Positions 6,863-46,535 of a stretch of DNA of 46,753 nt are shown here, one piece after another. Source of the DNA: an uncultured Geminicoccaceae bacterium (GTDB taxonomy: Bacteria; Pseudomonadota; Alphaproteobacteria; Geminicoccales; Geminicoccaceae). The DNA lies in assembly GCA_964412385.1 (NCBI GenBank), contig CAYPOV010000002.1, forward strand, positions 1 through 46,753, in the 5' to 3' direction. Below the pieces are notes generated by a model, which saw only the letters and a program-made list of their open reading frames with translations, had not been told where the DNA came from and ran no database searches. Both the position numbers and the translations under genes were made by a program. Within the stretch, counting starts at the first letter, position 1. Each line of letters opens with the position of its first letter.

Positions 6863-8029
6863 TTAGGGTGCCAGCTTCGAAGTTTCCTCCTCGGGTACCG
6901 GCTCCCATCGCTCGCGATACATCGCTTTGAAATCATAATTAGGGGTGAGCCGGTTTTCTGAGCCGCCAAACATGTCAATGTTGTCAGCAGTCACTAAGAA
7001 GGGCCGCCGTGTCCAGAAACTTGGCTGGCTTCCGTAAAGCGCCCTGATCATTTCGTCGACTGCTTGATAAGCCTCCAGTTCAGGGGCCTCGGCAGTCGTT
7101 ACGCGCTGAAACTGGTCACCTCGGCGGATGCGTTCGTAGGCCTCCGTTGTGCCATTGCTACCGACAAGAATGACACCATCGCGAGGCGCATCTGAGGCTT
7201 CCAGTGCGGGCACGACGAAATCGAGGAAATAGTCTGCAACCGACACGACGTAAAACGGTGCGTCGTAGGACTCGAGCCAATTTGGCACGACCTCGGGAAG
7301 CAGGTTCGGCAGCTTCTCGAGGAACGCATCGTAAACCTCGAGAATTTCGCAATCAGGGCATTCTTCCAGGCGTGATTGAACGGAGGTCGATTGAGCGCAG
7401 GCGCGCGGATGGCTGCAATCCGTGACGACAACAACCTTGGCTTGTCCCTCGCTGTCGGCAATCACCCAGTCGGCTTGTGCACGGCCGATCGCACGCGGGT
7501 CCGGGCTGATGTTGGTGTAGAGGCCGACCTCGCGATCTGGGCCCGGCAGCGGTGCCGAATGGATCCCGACAATCGGTATACGTGCCCGTCTGGCATCGCG
7601 CGAGAGAGGCTTGAGATGGGTGAGATCCATGGATGTGATAATGCCGTCGACACCAATTTGCAGCGCAAGGCCCAGATTTCCGACCCATCGAAGCGGGTTC
7701 CCCTCGCCATCGAGCACGCGGTACCGCCATCCAAGATCGGTTGCGGCCTCCGCCATGATTTCGCCCCAACGCTTGGAGACGGGGTTCTCTTCATCTGTGG
7801 AGAGGTAGTAGACAGTCTTCTGGGGCTCATAGGGAGGCGTGCTCGACAGAGATGTCGGGACTGAAGGCGGAAGAGATAAGTCTGCGACCGAATTCTTGGC
7901 TTCTTCGACGATTTGAGCCTGGGCAGGTACCGTGAGAACGAGGAAGGACAACAGCACAACGACCATCCTTAGCCAGACGGGAGCCGGCCAGATGGACGTC
8001 GCATTGCGTGTGTTTTTTTGCAGGCTCAT
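6863..8029 (-). CDS. Periplasmic binding protein, type-1 (sugar/LacI-like) fold, orphan
   Basis: 388 aa. It has a signal peptide (VVVLLSFLVLTVPAQAQ) and an alpha/beta alternation typical of PBP1 proteins. The functional family call is weak. There are no adjacent ABC genes. Confidence 0.65.
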   Translation of the reverse strand: MSLQKNTRNATSIWPAPVWLRMVVVLLSFLVLTVPAQAQIVEEAKNSVADLSLPPSVPTSLSSTPPYEPQKTVYYLSTDEENPVSKRWGEIMAEAATDLGWRYRVLDGEGNPLRWVGNLGLALQIGVDGIITSMDLTHLKPLSRDARRARIPIVGIHSAPLPGPDREVGLYTNISPDPRAIGRAQADWVIADSEGQAKVVVVTDCSHPRACAQSTSVQSRLEECPDCEILEVYDAFLEKLPNLLPEVVPNWLESYDAPFYVVSVADYFLDFVVPALEASDAPRDGVILVGSNGTTEAYERIRRGDQFQRVTTAEAPELEAYQAVDEMIRALYGSQPSFWTRRPFLVTADNIDMFGGSENRLTPNYDFKAMYRERWEPVPEEETSKLAP

Positions 8030-8255
8030 CGAACCAGGAAGCTCTCTTTTTTCGAAACGTGGAAGCGATAAATTGTGCGACGTCAGTGGCTTACGGAAGC
8101 TTATTCATGTTTCAAGTAAAGAATGAATTATTCTATAACTTTAAGTTGAATAATAGTGAACAGTGTATTACTAAGCGCAACAAGTCAAGCGGGTGGATAT
8201 AGTGAAACTCCCAAGAGCAAGAATCAAGCTCAGAGAGCAACAGGGAGTTGTTTTG

Positions 8256-8477
8256 ATGCGAAGGACTTCGGTCCCAGAAGTGACGCTCCATCATCGGCTT
8301 GTTCCGGATCATGCATATCGCCCCGAGCATGTCCATGCCGCTAGAGAACGGGCGAAACGGCGCGCTGGTGACCGTTTTGACGATGGCTATCCATCGGCCC
8401 GGATGGCGTTCACCTTGTCACTTCTGTTTTGGCCTATTTGTGGGATCGTGATCTACTTGCTGGCGCGTGTAATTTAG
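8256..8477 (+). CDS. Hypothetical small protein with a PLDc_N-like C-terminal helix (possibly a remnant)
   Basis: Only the C-terminus FTLSLLFWPICGIVIYLLARVI resembles the short PLD-N-terminal membrane domain family. The upstream part is basic, unconserved-looking and lacks the usual first helix. The start is uncertain (track ORF starts at 8193). Confidence 0.25.
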   Translation: MRRTSVPEVTLHHRLVPDHAYRPEHVHAARERAKRRAGDRFDDGYPSARMAFTLSLLFWPICGIVIYLLARVI

Positions 8478-38781: not shown

Positions 38782-40623
38782 ATGTTGCGCTGGTTCGAAA
38801 AGCGCCTCGATCCGTTTCAACCGGGTCCCGAGGGTCCGCCGCCTGCCGGGCTCTGGGCATTTTATTGGCATCACATCAAGCAAGTCCGCCAGCATCTGGT
38901 GATTGTGCTCGCCGTCGGCCTCGTCGCGGCGCTCATCGAAGTCTCCTTGTTCGCATTTCTGGGCAGTATCGTCGACTATGTCCGCGATGCCGAGAATCCG
39001 GCACAGTTTTTTGAGCAACATGGTCTCACCTTGATCCTCATGGCGCTGGTGGCGCTGATCTTGCGTCCCATTGCCATGGGCATGCATGTCGTCGTTATCG
39101 ATCAAGTGCTGACCGCCAACTTCACCAATCTCGTGCGATGGCAAAATCACCGCTACGTGTTGCGCCAGTCGCTCTCCTTTTTCGAGAACGATTTTGCGGG
39201 CCGCATCGCCAACAAGGTGATGCAGACAGGCGCCGCGCTTCGCGAATCAGTGATGCAGGTGACCGACGCGATGTGGGTCACGAGCATCTACACCCTGAGC
39301 GCTCTCGTGCTTTTCTTGAGTAGTGACTGGCGGCTCACGATTCCGCTGGTTTTGTGGGTTTGCGTCTTTGCCACCATCCTTCGATATTTCGTGCCGCGCA
39401 TCAAAGATCGGGCGGCCATCATGTCAGAAGCCCGATCGACCCTCACGGGCCGCGTGGTCGATAGCTACACCAATATCCACACCGTCAAACTGTTTGCCCA
39501 CGCCGACCGTGAGGAAACCTATGCTAAGGAAGCGATTGCCGAGCAAAACGACCGTTTCAAGGACCAGCTTCGCCTGATCGCTTACATGGAAACCTCCGTC
39601 AGTGCAGTGAACGGGGTGCTCATCACCACAACCTGCGGCATCGCCCTCTGGCTCTGGAGCCAAGGCTTGATCAGTATTGGCACGATCGCCCTCGCCACCG
39701 GTCTCGTCATCCGCATCAACAATATGGCGGGCTGGGTGATGTGGGTCGTCACCAGTATTTTCGAGAATATCGGTACCGTCCAAGAAGGGCTCGAGACGAT
39801 CTCCCGCCCTTATCAAGTCACCGATCGCTCTGAAGCCCCGGATCTCAAAGTCGAAAAAGGCGAAATCCGCTACGACAACATCACGTTTCACTATGGAAAG
39901 GGCGCTGGTGTCATCGACAATCTGTCCCTGACGATCCAACCAGGCGAAAAAGTTGGCTTGGTTGGCCCCTCAGGTGCCGGCAAATCGACTCTGGTCAATC
40001 TACTCTTGCGATTCTATGACCTCGAAGGTGGGCGGGTTCTGATCGACGGGCAGGATATCGCCAACGTCACTCAAGAGAGCCTTCGATCGCAGATCGGCAT
40101 GGTGACCCAAGACACATCGCTATTGCACCGTTCGGTCGAAGCCAACATTGTCTATGGCCGTCCCGATGTCGACCGTGCCGAGGTCATGGCGGCTGCCGAG
40201 AGGGCCCACGCTTTGGAATTCATACCTACGTTGCGCGATCTCAATGGTAGGAGCGGTTTCGGCGCGCATGTCGGCGAGCGTGGCGTCAAGCTTTCTGGCG
40301 GACAGCGTCAGCGCATCGCGATTGCCAGGGTTCTCTTGAAGAACGCCCCCATTCTTTTGCTCGACGAGGCGACATCGGCACTCGATTCGGAGATCGAGGC
40401 CGCAATCCAAGAACAGCTCTACGAGCTGATGCGCGGCAAGACCGTGATTGCGATCGCCCATAGGCTTTCGACCATCGCGGCCATGGACCGTCTGATCGTG
40501 ATGAACCAGGGCAAGATCGTCGAAATGGGCCATCACAACGAGCTCTTGGCAGAGGGCGGTCTTTACGCGCAGCTTTGGTCGCGGCAGTCTGGCGGCTTCT
40601 TGGCAACCGAAATTGCGGCCTGA
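38782..40623 (+). CDS. Half-size ABC exporter (fused TMD-NBD, MsbA-like type)
   Basis: The track ORF starts at 38518 inside the GNAT gene. The ATG at 38782 gives MLRWFEKRLDPF and 613 aa. It has six TM helices, then Walker A GPSGAGKST, signature LSGGQRQRIAIAR and Walker B LLLDEATSALD. Confidence 0.92.
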   Translation: MLRWFEKRLDPFQPGPEGPPPAGLWAFYWHHIKQVRQHLVIVLAVGLVAALIEVSLFAFLGSIVDYVRDAENPAQFFEQHGLTLILMALVALILRPIAMGMHVVVIDQVLTANFTNLVRWQNHRYVLRQSLSFFENDFAGRIANKVMQTGAALRESVMQVTDAMWVTSIYTLSALVLFLSSDWRLTIPLVLWVCVFATILRYFVPRIKDRAAIMSEARSTLTGRVVDSYTNIHTVKLFAHADREETYAKEAIAEQNDRFKDQLRLIAYMETSVSAVNGVLITTTCGIALWLWSQGLISIGTIALATGLVIRINNMAGWVMWVVTSIFENIGTVQEGLETISRPYQVTDRSEAPDLKVEKGEIRYDNITFHYGKGAGVIDNLSLTIQPGEKVGLVGPSGAGKSTLVNLLLRFYDLEGGRVLIDGQDIANVTQESLRSQIGMVTQDTSLLHRSVEANIVYGRPDVDRAEVMAAAERAHALEFIPTLRDLNGRSGFGAHVGERGVKLSGGQRQRIAIARVLLKNAPILLLDEATSALDSEIEAAIQEQLYELMRGKTVIAIAHRLSTIAAMDRLIVMNQGKIVEMGHHNELLAEGGLYAQLWSRQSGGFLATEIAA

Positions 40624-41246
40624 TGAGCGTCATTCGCACGGCGAGTTTTGATCAACGTGGCAATATCCTGGAGATCCGTCTCGAAGCGGAGGGCGGCTTG
40701 GTTGGCCGCGGTGCTGTTGAGAACGCAGAAGATCCGGCCGCTGTCTTAGCCTCGCTCGCGGGCCGTGATCCATTTGATCTCCACGGGCTTCGTCAGATCT
40801 CTGTCCCACATCCTTTGCTGGGTGCGGCCATCGAGACCGCCTATTTCGATCTCCAGGCACAATCGTGCGGACTGACACTGGCCCACATGCTGGGTGGCGC
40901 GTTTCAAGAACGAATCTCGCTGGGGATGCGTCCCGACGCAGCCGAGATGGCCATGGCCATCGACAACCTTGATGAGCTGGCCCATGCGCTTCGAGCGCAG
41001 AGCCTCGATGTCTGGCTTGCCGATCCGATTGTCCTCGGCGGGCCATCGGCCTTTCTCAAAGGATTGGCGCTCGCCCGCACCTATCTGATCGACGTCGCAA
41101 TAGACGCAAGGCGTCATGGTGCCATCGGCGAAGCGCTGGCGATGCAACTCGCGGCCTCGAGCCGTCTCGTTAATGCTGGTGTTCTCGTCGCAAGCGGCGA
41201 AACCGGGACGAGGATGGTGTCTCAAGCGCCGGGACTTGGCCTATGA
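40623..41246 (+). CDS. Degenerate enolase-superfamily (MR/MLE, glucarate-dehydratase-like) paralogue lacking the catalytic barrel core
   Basis: 207 aa. The N-terminal capping-domain motifs (GRDPFD, AAIETAYFDLQ, LGGA) and the last barrel strands/C-terminus (LDVWLADPIVLGG, PGLGL) match the downstream full-length paralogue. The KxK, Asp, Glu, Asn and His positions are absent. Its ATG overlaps the upstream TGA and its TGA overlaps the downstream ATG. Confidence 0.6.
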   Translation: MSVIRTASFDQRGNILEIRLEAEGGLVGRGAVENAEDPAAVLASLAGRDPFDLHGLRQISVPHPLLGAAIETAYFDLQAQSCGLTLAHMLGGAFQERISLGMRPDAAEMAMAIDNLDELAHALRAQSLDVWLADPIVLGGPSAFLKGLALARTYLIDVAIDARRHGAIGEALAMQLAASSRLVNAGVLVASGETGTRMVSQAPGLGL

Positions 41247-42412
41247 AAATCGTTGCCGCCGAGCTTGATCGTGTGCGCTATCCGATGGTCGGCACCAAAG
41301 TGACCGCGCATAACGCCGTCAGCGAGCATTTTCGAACCATCGTCCGTCTTTTCACGGAGTGCGGCCGCGTCGGTCTTGGTGAATGCTCGGGCCACCCCGA
41401 TAGTTGGAGGCTCGCCGGCCTGATCGCCAAGGAGAGTCTCGGTCGCGATCCCCACGACGCAGCTCTATTCCGGTTCGACTTTGCGCGAGCGAATTTCCAT
41501 CAGCGCAATGGCCGCAATGGTTGGATCGCCTACGGTGCAATTGAAACGGCCTTCTTCGATCTTCAAGGCAAACATGCGGATCGGCCGCTGTTCGATCTCT
41601 TGGGTGGTGCCTGCCGCAAGCACATTCGGGTCGTCAAGGGACTGAGCGCCGTGCCGCTCGCAGCCGGCGCAACACGCAACGATGTCGAGAATTTTGTTGC
41701 CGATCTTGGCAATGTCGACCGGCTGGTTGGCGATGCGCGTCGCAAGCTCGGCGAGACAGGGATCGGCTCAATCAAGCTCAAGAGTGCCGCTATCAGTCCC
41801 GACTGGGACGTTGCCGCCCTTTCCGCCCTGCGCGAGGCGTTCGGGCCGGAGATGAAGTTGAGGCTCGATCCCAATGCCGGCTACAGCCCGGCCCGGGCGA
41901 TCAGCCTGTTCACTCGCCTCGACCCGCTCAATCTCGAATATTTCGAGGATCCGACGGGCGACATTGAGGGCATGGCCCGCCTCAAACGCCATCTGCGAAC
42001 ACCACTCGCCACCAATATGTGTGTCATCCAGTTCGAGCACATTCCCTGCGCCATTCAGATGAATTCTGTCGATATCGTCTTGGGCGATGTTTATCATTGG
42101 GGCGGTGTGACAGCTGTCCGTGATCTGGCGGCGGTTTGTGAGGTGATGGGACTGGGCTTTGGCATCCACAGCACGCTCGAAAGCGAGTGGGACATCGGTG
42201 TCGCCTGCAATCTTCACCTCGCGGCAGCCCTTCCGGCCGTGCGGCATGCCATCGACGGTCACTTTCCTTCCGCTGACGGCGGGATCGTCAAGGAACAATT
42301 AAAGGTCAAAGATGGCGCGATTACCGTTCCCGAAGGTCCTGGTCTTGGCGTCACGCTTGATGAGGCGAAGATCCAGAGCCTCTCGGTTGACCGTCAGTCC
42401 CTCTCCCTTTGA
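41243..42412 (+). CDS. Enolase-superfamily dehydratase, glucarate-dehydratase (GlucD) subgroup-like
   Basis: 389 aa. It has KxK (SIKLKS) and metal-ligand segments RLDPNAGYS, LEYFEDP and LATNM. It also has DIVLGDVYHWGG (His-Asp dyad region) and PEGPGLGV. These align by eye with E. coli GudD. Confidence 0.86.
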   Translation: MKIVAAELDRVRYPMVGTKVTAHNAVSEHFRTIVRLFTECGRVGLGECSGHPDSWRLAGLIAKESLGRDPHDAALFRFDFARANFHQRNGRNGWIAYGAIETAFFDLQGKHADRPLFDLLGGACRKHIRVVKGLSAVPLAAGATRNDVENFVADLGNVDRLVGDARRKLGETGIGSIKLKSAAISPDWDVAALSALREAFGPEMKLRLDPNAGYSPARAISLFTRLDPLNLEYFEDPTGDIEGMARLKRHLRTPLATNMCVIQFEHIPCAIQMNSVDIVLGDVYHWGGVTAVRDLAAVCEVMGLGFGIHSTLESEWDIGVACNLHLAAALPAVRHAIDGHFPSADGGIVKEQLKVKDGAITVPEGPGLGVTLDEAKIQSLSVDRQSLSL

Positions 42413-43223: not shown

Positions 43224-43267
43224 TGTCAATGATTAATGACAACAAAAAGCGTCATCTTAGCTTGACA
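43224..43267 (+). promoter_or_regulatory. Two PpsR/CrtJ-type palindromes spaced 8 nt apart: TGTCAATGATTAATGACA (43224-43241) and CGTCATCTTAGCTTGACA (43250-43267)
   Basis: The first matches the TGT-N12-ACA consensus exactly. The second matches at 5 of the 6 consensus positions (CGT-N12-ACA). They lie 82-125 nt upstream of pucB, and the second overlaps a TTGACA hexamer. Confidence 0.55.
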
Positions 43268-43291: not shown

Positions 43292-43348
43292 ACAAGGGCC
43301 TCGGGAGCCTATTCGACCGAGGGGGAGTGTGTATCGAGGGAGAAACAC

Positions 43349-43525
43349 ATGGCTGAACAGCAAACCGCCGATTTGGACGATCCCAATCGGATTTGGCCGA
43401 CCGGTCTCACGATTCGCGAGTCGGAAGAGCTACATAAGCACATCATTGATGGTGCGCGCGTATTTTTTGTCATTTCATTGTTCGCTCATCTACTGGCGTT
43501 CGCGTTTACGCCTTGGGGAAGTTAA
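43349..43525 (+). CDS. pucB: Light-harvesting complex 2 beta polypeptide
   Basis: 58 aa, below the ORF-track cut-off. Translation is [58 protein letters not shown]. It shares WP(S/T)GLT, E-E-x-HK, G-x-RVF, the BChl-ligand AH and the C-terminal TPW with Rhodobacter sphaeroides PucB. The RBS GAGGGAG lies 6 nt upstream. Confidence 0.9.
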
Positions 43526-43537
43526 GGAGAAAGTCTG

Positions 43538-43690
43538 ATGAATCAGGGAAGAATTTGGTGTGTAGTTAACCCGACCGTAGGACTGCCTTTGTTCCTCGGT
43601 GCGGTAGCGTTGATTTCGTTCGTCATTCACTTCGCCGTGCTCGGCAACACGACTTGGTTCGCTGCCTTCTGGCAGGGTAGTGCGGGCTAG
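43538..43690 (+). CDS. pucA: Light-harvesting complex 2 alpha polypeptide
   Basis: 50 aa, below the ORF-track cut-off. Translation is [50 protein letters not shown]. It aligns without gaps to my recollection of Rhodoblastus acidophilus LH2 alpha (MNQGKIWTVVNP...VH...TTWFPAYWQGG), with the His31 ligand conserved. The RBS AAGGAG lies 8 nt upstream and overlaps the pucB stop. Confidence 0.9.
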
Positions 43691-43705
43691 GTTTTCTAGC
43701 CTTTT
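43685..43705 (+). terminator. Weak intrinsic-terminator-like hairpin GGCTAG-gtttt-CTAGCC followed by TTTT, embedding the pucA stop codon
   Basis: A 6-bp stem read directly, with a T-run at 43702-43705. The structure is short, so it is probably only partially terminating. Confidence 0.35.
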
Positions 43706-43722
43706 CGAGACTGATATGATTG

Positions 43723-43747
43723 GGGGTTGGGTCGTTGGTCCCACCCC
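43723..43747 (+). other. GC-rich intercistronic hairpin (GGGGtTGGG / CCCACCCC, 8 bp with one bulge, 8-nt loop) downstream of pucA
   Basis: Read directly. There is no trailing T-run, so it is more likely an mRNA 3'-end stabiliser or processing barrier than a terminator. Confidence 0.4.
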
Positions 43748-43800
43748 GCAATTATCGCAAACGACAATGATCGCTGGGGCCGAACCGGGGAGGGTCCGTC

Positions 43801-44499
43801 ATGTCCATAGTTGTTGGGTCATTCAAGACCACTGAATCCGCAGAGGCTGCCGCGGCGGAACTCGATACGGCCAAGATGATCGAGCACAAAGTGCTCCTCG
43901 CTGGCCAGCCGGAGGAGTCCGAACTCGATGCCGTGCAGGCCGCGGTCGAAACCGGTTTCGTACCGAGAAGCGAGCGGGATCACTTCGTCCAGCAGCTCAA
44001 AGATGGCCAGTCCTTGGTTGCCGTAAGGCCACCTTTCATGCGCGCCATCAAGGCCATGGGTATTCTGGAGAGCCATGGTGCCGAGACTTCCAGCCACACG
44101 GAGGACACACGGCCCATCCGCTCAAACGCAGCGCCGTTCTCCGCTGCCCTGGGTATAGACACGCTCAAATCGTCCAAATCGACAACCGATCTCAGCCGCG
44201 CCAGCCCCTTTTCCTTCAGGAAATTCCTCGGGCTGGGTCTGCTTAGCGACAATCCGGCGCCGCTATCGTCACGCTTCAATCTACCCTTGCTTAAATCGCC
44301 GAAGGCTTCTTGGGATAAGAGCATGGGCATGTCGTTGCTATCCGATGAGCCGGCACCGCTCTCCAAGCGTTTCAATTGGACGACGGTTTATCCGCGTAAG
44401 CAAGATTGGCAAAAGAGCTTCGGCATGCCGCTCCTCTCCAATGACCCGACGCCGCTCTCCAATTTCTTCGGCTTCAAGGTCCTTTCCGACAAGCAATAG
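43801..44499 (+). CDS. Uncharacterised soluble-looking protein with C-terminal 32-residue tandem repeats, embedded in the puc operon
   Basis: 232 aa. A GGAGG RBS lies 7 nt upstream and GC3 usage is coding-like. It is on the same strand as pucBA and pucC (110 nt and 38 nt gaps). No stretch is long enough for a TM helix. The repeats are listed in the next feature. Confidence 0.65.
   Translation: MSIVVGSFKTTESAEAAAAELDTAKMIEHKVLLAGQPEESELDAVQAAVETGFVPRSERDHFVQQLKDGQSLVAVRPPFMRAIKAMGILESHGAETSSHTEDTRPIRSNAAPFSAALGIDTLKSSKSTTDLSRASPFSFRKFLGLGLLSDNPAPLSSRFNLPLLKSPKASWDKSMGMSLLSDEPAPLSKRFNWTTVYPRKQDWQKSFGMPLLSNDPTPLSNFFGFKVLSDKQ
44227..44496 (+). repeat. In-frame tandem repeats (96 nt / 32 aa, three copies, the last truncated) inside the puc-embedded ORF
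   Basis: The copies are LGLGLLSDNPAPLSSRFNLPLLKSPKASWDKS, MGMSLLSDEPAPLSKRFNWTTVYPRKQDWQKS and FGMPLLSNDPTPLSNFFGFKVLSDKQ. A degenerate earlier copy lies around residues 108-140 (SNAAPFSAALGIDTL). The copies have diverged at the DNA level. Confidence 0.7.
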
Positions 44500-44537: not shown

Positions 44538-46013
44538 ATGTTCAGGCATCCGGTCAAGCAATTTGTCGCCGCTTGGGAGTCGCTCGGCCCGCGCTATATG
44601 CCGTTTCTGGATGTGGCGACCCCGGACCTGCCGCTTTCACGCCTTTTGCGGCTCTCGCTCTTTCAGGTGTCGGTTGGCATGACCTTGGTATTGCTGGTCG
44701 GCACGCTCAATCGCGTCATGATTGTCGAACTGGGCGTTCCGGCTTCGATCGTCGGCATCATGATCGCCCTGCCGCTCGTCTTCGCACCGTTTCGCGCGCT
44801 CATCGGCTATAAATCCGACACTCACCGCTGCGAACTCGGTTGGCGCCGCGTGCCCTTCATCTGGAAGGGGACGCTCCTCTTGTGGGGTGGTTTTGCGGTG
44901 ATGCCGTTCGCCCTTTTGGTGCTCGCCGGCAAAGGTGAATCGGGGAACCTGCCACTTTGGATGGGGCATTCTTCGGCAGCGATTGCCTTTCTTCTGGTCG
45001 GTGCCGGCGCCCATATTGTCCAGACCGCGGGTCTGGCACTTGCCACCGATCTCACGCCACCGGAATCCCATCCCAAAGTCGTGGGCCTTATGTATGTCAT
45101 GCTGCTTCTTGGCATGATGGTCAGCGCCTTGGTCTTCGGTGCGGCACTCGCCGATTTCACGCCGGGCCGGCTGGTCCAGGTGATCCAAAGCGCAGCGCTC
45201 GCCTGTCTGGTTCTCAATGCCGTCGCAATGTGGAAACAGGAAGCGAGGCGCCCGCCACGAGGTGCTGCGGCGCCGCCGGATCCGACATTCCGGGAGTCCT
45301 GGGCGTTGTTCTGCAGGGGCGAAGATGCCGTCCGCCGATTGGTGATTGTCGGTCTCGGCACCATGGCGTTTGGCATGGCCGATGTCTTGCTCGAGCCCTT
45401 CGGCGGCCAGGTCCTCAACTGGACCATCGCCGCCACGACGACGTTGACGGCTGTGCTGGCGCTTGGCGGCTTGTTCGGTTTCGGCTTTGCCTCGCATGTT
45501 CTCGGGCGGGGCGGCGATCCCTATCGCATGATCCTCAAGGGTGCCTTGGTTGGCTTGCCCGGTTTCGGGCTGATCATCCTGGCCGCACCGTTCGGTTTGT
45601 CGCTGGCCTTCCTCGCTGGGAATTTTCTCATCGGGTTCGGTGCCGCCGTGTTCGGTCATAGCACATTGACGGCGACGATGAACCGCGCACCCAAAGAACA
45701 GGCGGGGCTCGCCCTCGGCGCTTGGGGTGCCGTCCAGGCGACGGCTGCGGGCGTCGCCGTGGCACTCAGCGGTACCATGCGCGATCTCGTCAACGCAGGC
45801 TTGGCGGCGGCCGATGGGATCGGCGAGTTCAGTCAGGCGGCTGGCGGCTACATCACCGTCTACGCATTAGAGATCGTGCTCCTGCTGATCACCGTCGCTG
45901 CGACATGGCCGATGATCAGAAAGTTGCGCGAGCGAGGCAGCGCCGGAGCGTCGACCATCGACGGCCAAGGTCTCGACGAACCGATGCTTGATAATTCAGC
46001 GCGCTCGACCTGA
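44538..46013 (+). CDS. pucC: PucC (BCD/LhaA-PucC family MFS-type LH2 assembly protein)
   Basis: 491 aa and about 12 TM. The N-terminus LRLSLFQVSVGMTLVLLVGTLNRVMIVELGVPASIVGIMIALPLVFAPFRALIGYKSDTH is characteristic of the PucC/LhaA/Bch2 family. It lies downstream of pucBA. Confidence 0.92.
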   Translation: MFRHPVKQFVAAWESLGPRYMPFLDVATPDLPLSRLLRLSLFQVSVGMTLVLLVGTLNRVMIVELGVPASIVGIMIALPLVFAPFRALIGYKSDTHRCELGWRRVPFIWKGTLLLWGGFAVMPFALLVLAGKGESGNLPLWMGHSSAAIAFLLVGAGAHIVQTAGLALATDLTPPESHPKVVGLMYVMLLLGMMVSALVFGAALADFTPGRLVQVIQSAALACLVLNAVAMWKQEARRPPRGAAAPPDPTFRESWALFCRGEDAVRRLVIVGLGTMAFGMADVLLEPFGGQVLNWTIAATTTLTAVLALGGLFGFGFASHVLGRGGDPYRMILKGALVGLPGFGLIILAAPFGLSLAFLAGNFLIGFGAAVFGHSTLTATMNRAPKEQAGLALGAWGAVQATAAGVAVALSGTMRDLVNAGLAAADGIGEFSQAAGGYITVYALEIVLLLITVAATWPMIRKLRERGSAGASTIDGQGLDEPMLDNSARST

Positions 46014-46022
46014 AAAATCACT

Positions 46023-46535
46023 ATGCCCCAGCTTGAGATTCTTGAGCATCCCGACCCGCGTCTGAGATTGAAATCGGCGCCGGTGGCAGCGTTCGATGAT
46101 GATCTTGGGCGCTTGGTCGATGATCTGATCGAAACGCTCCACGCCAAGAATGGAATGGGTCTCTCGGCACCGCAAGTGAACGACCAGCGTCAGATCATGG
46201 TGATGGATCATTCTGAGGACCAATCTGCCCCTGAAGTCTTCATCAACCCGGAAATTCTCAAGAAATCTGCGTGGGGCGTCGTCCAAGAAAGCTGCTTGTC
46301 GGTCCCCGGCGTCGTCGGCAATGTCTGGCGTGCAACGCGGGTCGAGGTGCGTGCAAAAGACCGCACTGGCAAGGTCTTCGAGCAGGATCTGCAAGGCATG
46401 CCGGCTGTCTGTCTCCTCCACGAAGTCGATCACTTGGACGGCAAGCTATTCATCGATCGCTTTTCGATTATCGGTAAACTTCGTCTCAGAGCCCGTGCTC
46501 GCGCGCAAGCGCGCGGCAACGCGACCGCTACCTGA
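46023..46535 (+). CDS. def: Peptide deformylase
   Basis: 170 aa. The three PDF motifs are GMGLSAPQV (motif 1), ESCLSVPG (motif 2, Ser in place of the usual Gly) and HEVDHLDG (motif 3). It starts 9 nt after the pucC stop with no obvious Shine-Dalgarno sequence. Confidence 0.92.
   Translation: MPQLEILEHPDPRLRLKSAPVAAFDDDLGRLVDDLIETLHAKNGMGLSAPQVNDQRQIMVMDHSEDQSAPEVFINPEILKKSAWGVVQESCLSVPGVVGNVWRATRVEVRAKDRTGKVFEQDLQGMPAVCLLHEVDHLDGKLFIDRFSIIGKLRLRARARAQARGNATAT

Follow-up and report, generated by a model that had tools for sequence, protein, structure and literature searches.

We find that an unnamed gene in the puc operon of an uncultured Geminicoccaceae bacterium is related to pucD and pucE of Rhodobacter capsulatus, and that the data, taken as a whole, are best explained if its product is a distant member of the PucD-PucE family, i.e., of the gamma chain of light-harvesting complex 2 (LH2), which probably acts as an accessory subunit that stabilises LH2 from the cytoplasmic face. 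The gene is an open reading frame (ORF) of 232 amino acids (aa) that lies between pucA and pucC on contig CAYPOV010000002.1 of GenBank assembly GCA_964412385.1, the whole stretch analyzed here comprising positions 1 to 46,753 of the forward strand (46,753 nucleotides (nt); hereafter the window). Membership in the family is shown, at the level of sequence, by profile comparison and synteny, and the gene is tightly linked to the puc operon. The window ORF would then be a diverged version of a gene that is known but poorly understood, placed elsewhere in the operon.

Relationship to PucD and PucE of Rhodobacter capsulatus

The R. capsulatus operon is named pucBACDE (PMC9231093), and the position of pucD in it is after pucC. 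We find that the Rhodobacterales gene after pucC is a weaker member of the window family, one that shares the N-terminal domain (MTTIITRLY...LVVVRAPF) and differs in its repeats. The loci of R. capsulatus and its close relatives were reached by a search with R. capsulatus PucA, and in these loci pucB-pucA-pucC is followed by an ORF of 232-233 aa that carries no Pfam domain. The R. capsulatus ORF (232 aa; 7731-8429 of locus L093, CP198954.1; ADE86263.1 in SB1003; present on 75 contigs) is named "Light-harvesting protein B-800/850, gamma chain" in UniRef and "hypothetical" by NCBI. An exact look-up reveals that its last 118 residues (MTDNIMKDHRHIF...ATIQRR) are UniProt P23460/AAA26165.1, that is, PucE, which therefore makes up the C-terminal half of a single frame of 232 aa. 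The same look-up rules out that R. capsulatus PucE is a separate small hydrophobic protein, a role for which a 92-aa ORF after the gene (in L091) had been a candidate. The PucE part starts at Met115, with the motif GAGGA 10 nt upstream, and judging from these features Met115 could be a separate start for PucE in R. capsulatus. The remaining 114 N-terminal residues (1-114) probably correspond to the published PucD, an assignment that depends on the length of PucD, 113 aa. The historical pucD and pucE genes thus appear to correspond to a single 232-aa ORF, the PucE part by exact match and the PucD part judging by this length.

Profile comparison connects this reading frame to the window protein. 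The family hidden Markov model (HMM) scores the R. capsulatus ORF at 50.2 bits, with E 4e-14 at Z=4000 (a 4000-protein genome), and hhalign comparison of the window family with the Rhodobacterales alignment matches the N-terminal domains over 97 columns (probability 99.8%, E 6.8e-28) and the C-terminal halves alone over 85 columns (probability 92.4%, E 5e-7). An HMM of the window-family repeat half gives 20.1 bits against P23460 (E 8e-5 at Z=4000). On these profiles the N-terminal domains of the window protein and of the R. capsulatus PucD part are homologous, and the repeat halves of the window protein and PucE are probably so; whole-protein orthology is well supported, given the repeat-half result together with the fused N-terminal domain and synteny. 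A previous sequence-only reading of the window, made by a model, had judged the protein to be unlike PucD and PucE, which profile comparison, synteny and the exact P23460 match in its R. capsulatus counterpart contradict; what had been put forward as a candidate for a new, undescribed LH2 component is instead the counterpart of the R. capsulatus gene that follows pucC. The broader proposal made there, of a conserved puc-operon member that is very probably LH2-associated, is supported by the linkage of the family described below.

Knowledge of the R. capsulatus LH2 gamma chain goes back to the late 1970s, and its sequence dates from 1991. Work by Feick and Drews in 1978, Tichy et al. in 1991 and LeBlanc and Beatty in 1993 reportedly described a 14-kDa gamma chain that co-purifies with B800-850 and binds no pigment, and loss of pucDE reportedly lowers LH2 and does not abolish it. 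This chain, long known, is yet without a structure, a mechanism, or a Pfam or NCBIfam model, and we find no modern treatment of pucD, pucE or pucDE in the full-text literature.

Linkage of the family to puc operons

Contigs were fetched for seven homologues, including the weakest one chosen (E 1.5e-8), and all seven prove to be puc operons, in line with the linkage of homologues to puc genes that the sequence-only reading had named as a check. With X denoting the family member, the gene order is pucB-pucA-X-pucC-def in a Salinarimonas sp., in a 3.9-Mb metagenome-assembled genome (MAG), where the operon stands beside RuBisCO and bacteriophytochrome genes, and in one further contig, and it is pucB-pucA-pucC-X in three metagenomic contigs. 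The P0040 contig (JGI 3300042731) reads pucBA-X-pucBA-pucC-def, with a family member of 333 aa as X, and a second gene of equal length (333 aa), without a Pfam domain, is found upstream on the same contig. This suggests that the family gene may have been duplicated together with pucBA.

The same picture emerges from 80 pucC loci from named genomes, collected via PucC alignment and searched as six-frame ORFs with the family HMMs. Of these loci, 43 have a family member adjacent to pucC or pucBA, 13 of them with the order pucA-X-pucC and 21 with pucC-X, while the remaining carriers have a second pucBA pair in between or the member on the opposite strand. Among the carriers are Rhodovibrionaceae, Kiloniellales, Hyphomicrobiales, Rhodobacterales, Acetobacteraceae and Caulobacterales; they also comprise gammaproteobacterial MAGs labelled Chromatiales, Chromatiaceae, Halieaceae, Alteromonadaceae and Lysobacterales; and the gene is also carried by one Burkholderiaceae MAG and one MAG labelled Myxococcota. 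In the latter (L029, 5419-5952) a short member (~150 aa, 44 bits) is embedded in pucBA-X-pucC-def; either the operon was acquired horizontally as a whole, or the MAG was wrongly binned. PucA itself differs in length among these loci: in pucC-X loci (L004 6005-6379, L005 6126-6497, L009 6057-6443) it has a long C-terminal extension and is 123-128 aa long, and in pucA-X-pucC loci it is 47-50 aa long.

A gene that adjoins pucC, before or after it, and that many lineages can do without might also be expected of a transient assembly factor. Such a protein would work with PucC, an MFS-type protein of bacteriochlorophyll delivery and assembly, e.g., by keeping the N-termini of nascent alpha/beta chains in place at the cytoplasmic side, and would be absent from mature LH2, a picture with which the lack of a family member in any LH2 structure also agrees. 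We nonetheless consider it unlikely, as the R. capsulatus homologue has a C-terminal half that bears the name of a chain of the purified B800-850 complex, and in one contig, whose locus has two pucBA pairs, a gene copy comes after one of these pairs.

Extent and annotation of the family

A word-index search returns 144 homologues, the closest of which are only 40-43% identical to the window protein; none has a Pfam domain, and all those named by their source are called "hypothetical protein". A profile search of 1.84 billion cluster representatives, clustered at 50% identity, finds 1073 at E<=1e-10, of which 576 also pass E<=1e-30, so that the family comprises at least 576 clusters. The 144 homologues and the 576 clusters at the stricter threshold place conservation far beyond chance. 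Scans of the window protein against Pfam and NCBIfam give no match at E<=1, and the family has no model in either database, its members being labelled "hypothetical" by nearly every naming source; tblastn of the ORF against a plasmid collection gives no match. A search with both family profiles of a PDB copy that includes every LH2 structure finds no family member and returns chance matches only (e.g., coronavirus 3CL protease, E ~0.1). DUF6301 and Nucleoporin_FG matches in relatives map to the repeat region and were treated as compositional.

A large, unnamed and puc-linked family, spread over Alpha-, Beta- and Gammaproteobacteria and a Myxococcota-labelled MAG, is now tied to a classical LH2 subunit. 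A regular 16-residue repeat is shown for this family, and the link offers a means to annotate hundreds of genomes.

Architecture of the window protein

The ORF and its parts are positioned as follows.

43801..44499, + strand: whole ORF (232 aa), PucD-PucE family protein, ATG start
43789..43793, + strand: GGAGG ribosome-binding site of the 232-aa ORF, 7 nt before the ATG
43801..44091, + strand: alpha/beta domain at the N-terminus (residues 1-97), corresponding to the PucD part of the R. capsulatus protein; perhaps ferredoxin-like in arrangement, weakly YflT-like (AlphaFold2, hhalign)
44122..44487, + strand: C-terminal repeat region (residues 108-229), probable counterpart of PucE/gamma chain; ~7.6 units of 16 residues

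The coordinates, the length, the ribosome-binding site and the gaps of 110 nt from pucA and 38 nt to pucC are all confirmed as the sequence-only reading gave them. The highest 19-residue Kyte-Doolittle mean is only 1.04, so the protein has no transmembrane segment, again as had been stated; as no signal peptide is seen either, the protein is probably made and retained in the cytoplasm. The small N-terminal alpha/beta domain of ~95 residues proposed earlier is recovered in an AlphaFold2 model from a 120-sequence alignment, in which residues 1-97 form a confident domain (pLDDT >90) with the order b-a-b-a-a-b-a-b. The C-terminal half is modeled mostly as coil, with a short helix at each P-L-S-x-x-F and no long helix (pLDDT 50-80). 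The net charge is -6 in the N-terminal half and +7 in the repeat half, which contains no His. In the alignment, A14, A17, L21, G69, V73 and F79-G80 of the N-terminal domain are near-invariant, and the number of repeats varies.

The C-terminal half is repetitive, as the earlier reading had it, although not as three full 32-residue units. We find that only two units are full (150-181 and 182-213, 18/32 identical); they are followed by a half unit at the C-terminus (214-229) and preceded by a degenerate one (118-149, 9/32 identical), and the underlying period is 16 residues rather than 32, with S-W-x-K-S in place of P-A-P-L-S in every second unit of the window protein. Across the family, P-[LF]-S motifs are mostly spaced by 16 or 32 residues, and the consensus over 1409 units in 246 proteins is D-N-P-A-P-L-S-S-x-[LF]-G-[LWM]-x-V-L-S; the Ser is invariant in P-[LF]-S over these 1409 units, which were themselves chosen by that motif. 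The number of 16-residue units is ~7.6 in the window protein, and the family median is ~7.8. Tandem Repeats Finder detects no DNA-level tandem repeat, and the repeats are therefore old and kept at the level of the protein.

In some Rhodobacterales members the C-terminal repeats are expanded and of a very different kind (L087 7353-8492, L043 2105-2830, L067 5280-6371, L069 2944-4017). One type consists of ~10 copies of the 15-residue, His-rich GHKYMAKFPFAHIVP, and another of RMANFPIPLISRRKPY; the two His per unit could, judging from the repeat sequence, be pigment ligands.

A Foldseek search of the N-terminal domain against the PDB finds no match at E<=0.001, and the weak matches that it does return are ferredoxin-like or PII-like (PstA 4rwx, GlnB/GlnK; E 0.08-0.3, target-normalised TM-score 0.45-0.64). 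The likeness to YflT/GSP17M stress proteins noted in the sequence-only reading holds in part: PF11181 gives sub-threshold matches in 20 of 40 relatives (residues ~4-79, covering the N-terminal 35-80 residues, to the profile start; best E 9.5e-5). Those inspected singly score 15-17 bits, vs 26.2 for the gathering threshold, and for the window protein PF11181 gives no match at E<=1. This likeness does not suggest a function, and YflT proteins have no known link to photosynthesis, unlike the puc-linked window family. One could still imagine a regulator, whose YflT- or PII-like N-terminal domain would respond to a signal by tuning puc expression or the turnover of LH2, the repeats serving merely as a tether, and the PII/PstA fold matches (E ~0.08) and sub-threshold YflT matches point in that direction. 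Yet these fold matches are not significant, the protein has no DNA-binding or catalytic motif, and the repeat region is the most conserved and most expanded part, all of which makes a regulator highly improbable.

The window operon

The remaining features of the locus are listed here.

43349..43525, + strand: pucB, LH2 beta polypeptide, 58 aa (PF00556, 1.2e-07)
43538..43690, + strand: pucA, LH2 alpha polypeptide, 50 aa (PF00556, 1.3e-13)
44538..46013, + strand: pucC, 491 aa, MFS-type LH2 assembly protein (PF03209, 1e-142)
46023..46535, + strand: def, peptide deformylase (PF01327, 6.2e-45), 9 nt after pucC
43224..43241, strand not applicable: perfect palindrome TGTCAATGATTAATGACA (TGT-N12-ACA), candidate PpsR/CrtJ-type repressor site, ~105 nt upstream of pucB
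43685..43706, + strand: hairpin GGCUAG-N5-CUAGCC with UUUUC directly behind it, which overlaps the stop codon of pucA; candidate for a partial terminator or for a 3' end that stabilises pucBA mRNA

The gene order is the conserved pucB-pucA-X-pucC-def, which is also that of L001, L003 and L007. The def gene is directly 3' of pucC in every locus ordered pucA-X-pucC, and in 19 of the 80 pucC loci overall; it is a conserved operon partner for which we know of no described role in antenna biogenesis. In some species the N-terminal Met of LH2 alpha is modified and ligates B800.

The palindrome at 43224-43241 is one of five TGT-N12-ACA matches in the whole window, vs 5.7 expected by chance, and only its position and its extended palindrome are suggestive of a repressor site. 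Another TGT-N12-ACA (43330-43347) stops right before pucB begins, so that it overlaps the likely pucB ribosome-binding site. A sigma-70 promoter scan gives no match. The hairpin at 43685-43706 is not among the terminators listed by a terminator scan, and the fold of the whole intergenic RNA (43685-43805) is unexceptional (z = -1.47); as read from the sequence, the hairpin would fit the usual combination of abundant pucBA mRNA with reduced downstream read-through. Elsewhere in the window, a 223-aa ORF (40575-41246) with only a partial MR_MLE_C match stands just before a full-length mandelate racemase/enolase-family gene (41243-42412), and from its sequence could be a truncated paralogue or gene remnant.

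A putative accessory subunit on the cytoplasmic face of LH2

In the mechanism that we propose, the 232-aa ORF would be co-transcribed with pucBA and pucC via read-through of the hairpin after pucA, and its product would be a peripheral LH2 subunit on the cytoplasmic face. We infer the latter from the lack of a transmembrane segment or signal peptide, the basic, extended repeats and the acidic, globular N-terminal domain; the basic and extended character of the repeat region would suit the anionic head-group zone. Purely by analogy with the gamma ribbon of Rhodopseudomonas palustris, described below, each 16-residue unit may contact one alpha/beta pair.

Several findings weigh against this proposal. 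Pairwise BLASTP between the window protein and its R. capsulatus counterpart does not reach significance (E 0.26), which also explains why a reading of the sequence alone missed the link to PucD and PucE; support for homology of the repeat halves is moderate, with scores that the composition of the repeats may have raised. The hairpin and U-run after pucA may lower read-through into the ORF. The gene is lacking in 37 of the 80 pucC loci, mostly from Betaproteobacteria (Polynucleobacter, Rubrivivax, Piscinibacter) and also from Rhodoplanes and some Sphingomonadales MAGs, so LH2 in general does not require it. Finally, since no solved structure contains a family member, physical association with LH2 is documented only for R. 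capsulatus, via a database name and the reported co-purification. An accessory subunit that stabilises LH2 remains, in our judgment, the probable function.

Comparison with known LH2 gamma chains

The closest known system is PucD/PucE of R. capsulatus, which shares with the window protein a length of 232 aa, a two-part architecture, a puc-operon gene that adjoins pucC, and the lack of a transmembrane segment. The two differ in gene position, which is between pucA and pucC in the window and after pucC in R. capsulatus, and in their repeats, which in the window are a regular 16-residue D-N-P-A-P-L-S...G-x-x-V-L-S, whereas Rhodobacter has ~4 looser S-x-x-F-W-x-x-P-L-L repeats that are ~24 residues apart. 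They differ also at the domain boundary, marked by Met115 in R. capsulatus; the window protein has no Met nearby, and any separate gamma-like fragment would here need proteolysis.

A second point of comparison is LH2 gamma of Rhodopseudomonas (Rps.) palustris, an extended ribbon in the membrane plane on the cytoplasmic side, of which six repeats each contact one alpha/beta pair and the Ser of each repeat ligates the Mg of an extra bacteriochlorophyll, six of which are bound (Qian et al., PMC9618040). The same authors reported the gamma polypeptide only in Rhodopseudomonas (PMC9618040). We find that this chain (PDB 7zcu_S, 97 aa) has the 16-residue repeat EYKGxSGxPLILKQEG. Homology of the window family to it is not significant (HMM E 12-33; hhalign probability <1%) and was rejected on these values, all HMM E being >10; the best, non-significant alignment keeps G-x-P-L-[IL] in register.

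The equal period, this shared core and the invariant Ser of P-[LF]-S, a residue that serves as the Mg ligand in Rps. palustris gamma, raise the question of whether the window protein is a pigment-binding gamma of the same kind, with its repeats as a ribbon round the ring and the Ser of P-L-S ligating an extra B800-type bacteriochlorophyll. We consider this very unlikely: besides the lack of significant homology, the offset of the Ser from the G-x-P-L core differs from that in Rps. palustris gamma, and the R. capsulatus gamma chain reportedly binds no pigment.

A bolder extension of the accessory-subunit reading is that PucD-PucE repeats in general run as an elongated belt along the cytoplasmic rim of the LH2 ring, with one repeat per alpha/beta pair, as a very ancient relative or a convergent version of the Rps. 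palustris ribbon. Known LH2 rings have 7-9 alpha/beta pairs, against the ~7.6 units of the window protein and a family median of ~8. In such a belt the invariant Ser, or the His of Rhodobacteraceae variants with GHKYMAKFPFAHIVP repeats, might bind extra pigment, and the N-terminal domain, YflT-like, would act in the cytoplasm as a cap or as a module for docking. We regard the belt as possible, though on the whole doubtful; if true, gamma-type belts would not be peculiar to Rhodopseudomonas but a general and overlooked feature of LH2 in Alpha-, Beta- and Gammaproteobacteria.

Rps. palustris gamma and the window protein have in common a non-helical, non-transmembrane and LH2-linked chain with tandem 16-residue repeats, a G-x-P-L-[IL] core and a conserved Ser. 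The cytoplasmic location is observed for Rps. palustris gamma and predicted for the window protein, and Rps. palustris gamma, which binds six bacteriochlorophylls, is 97 aa long and, unlike the window protein, has no N-terminal domain.

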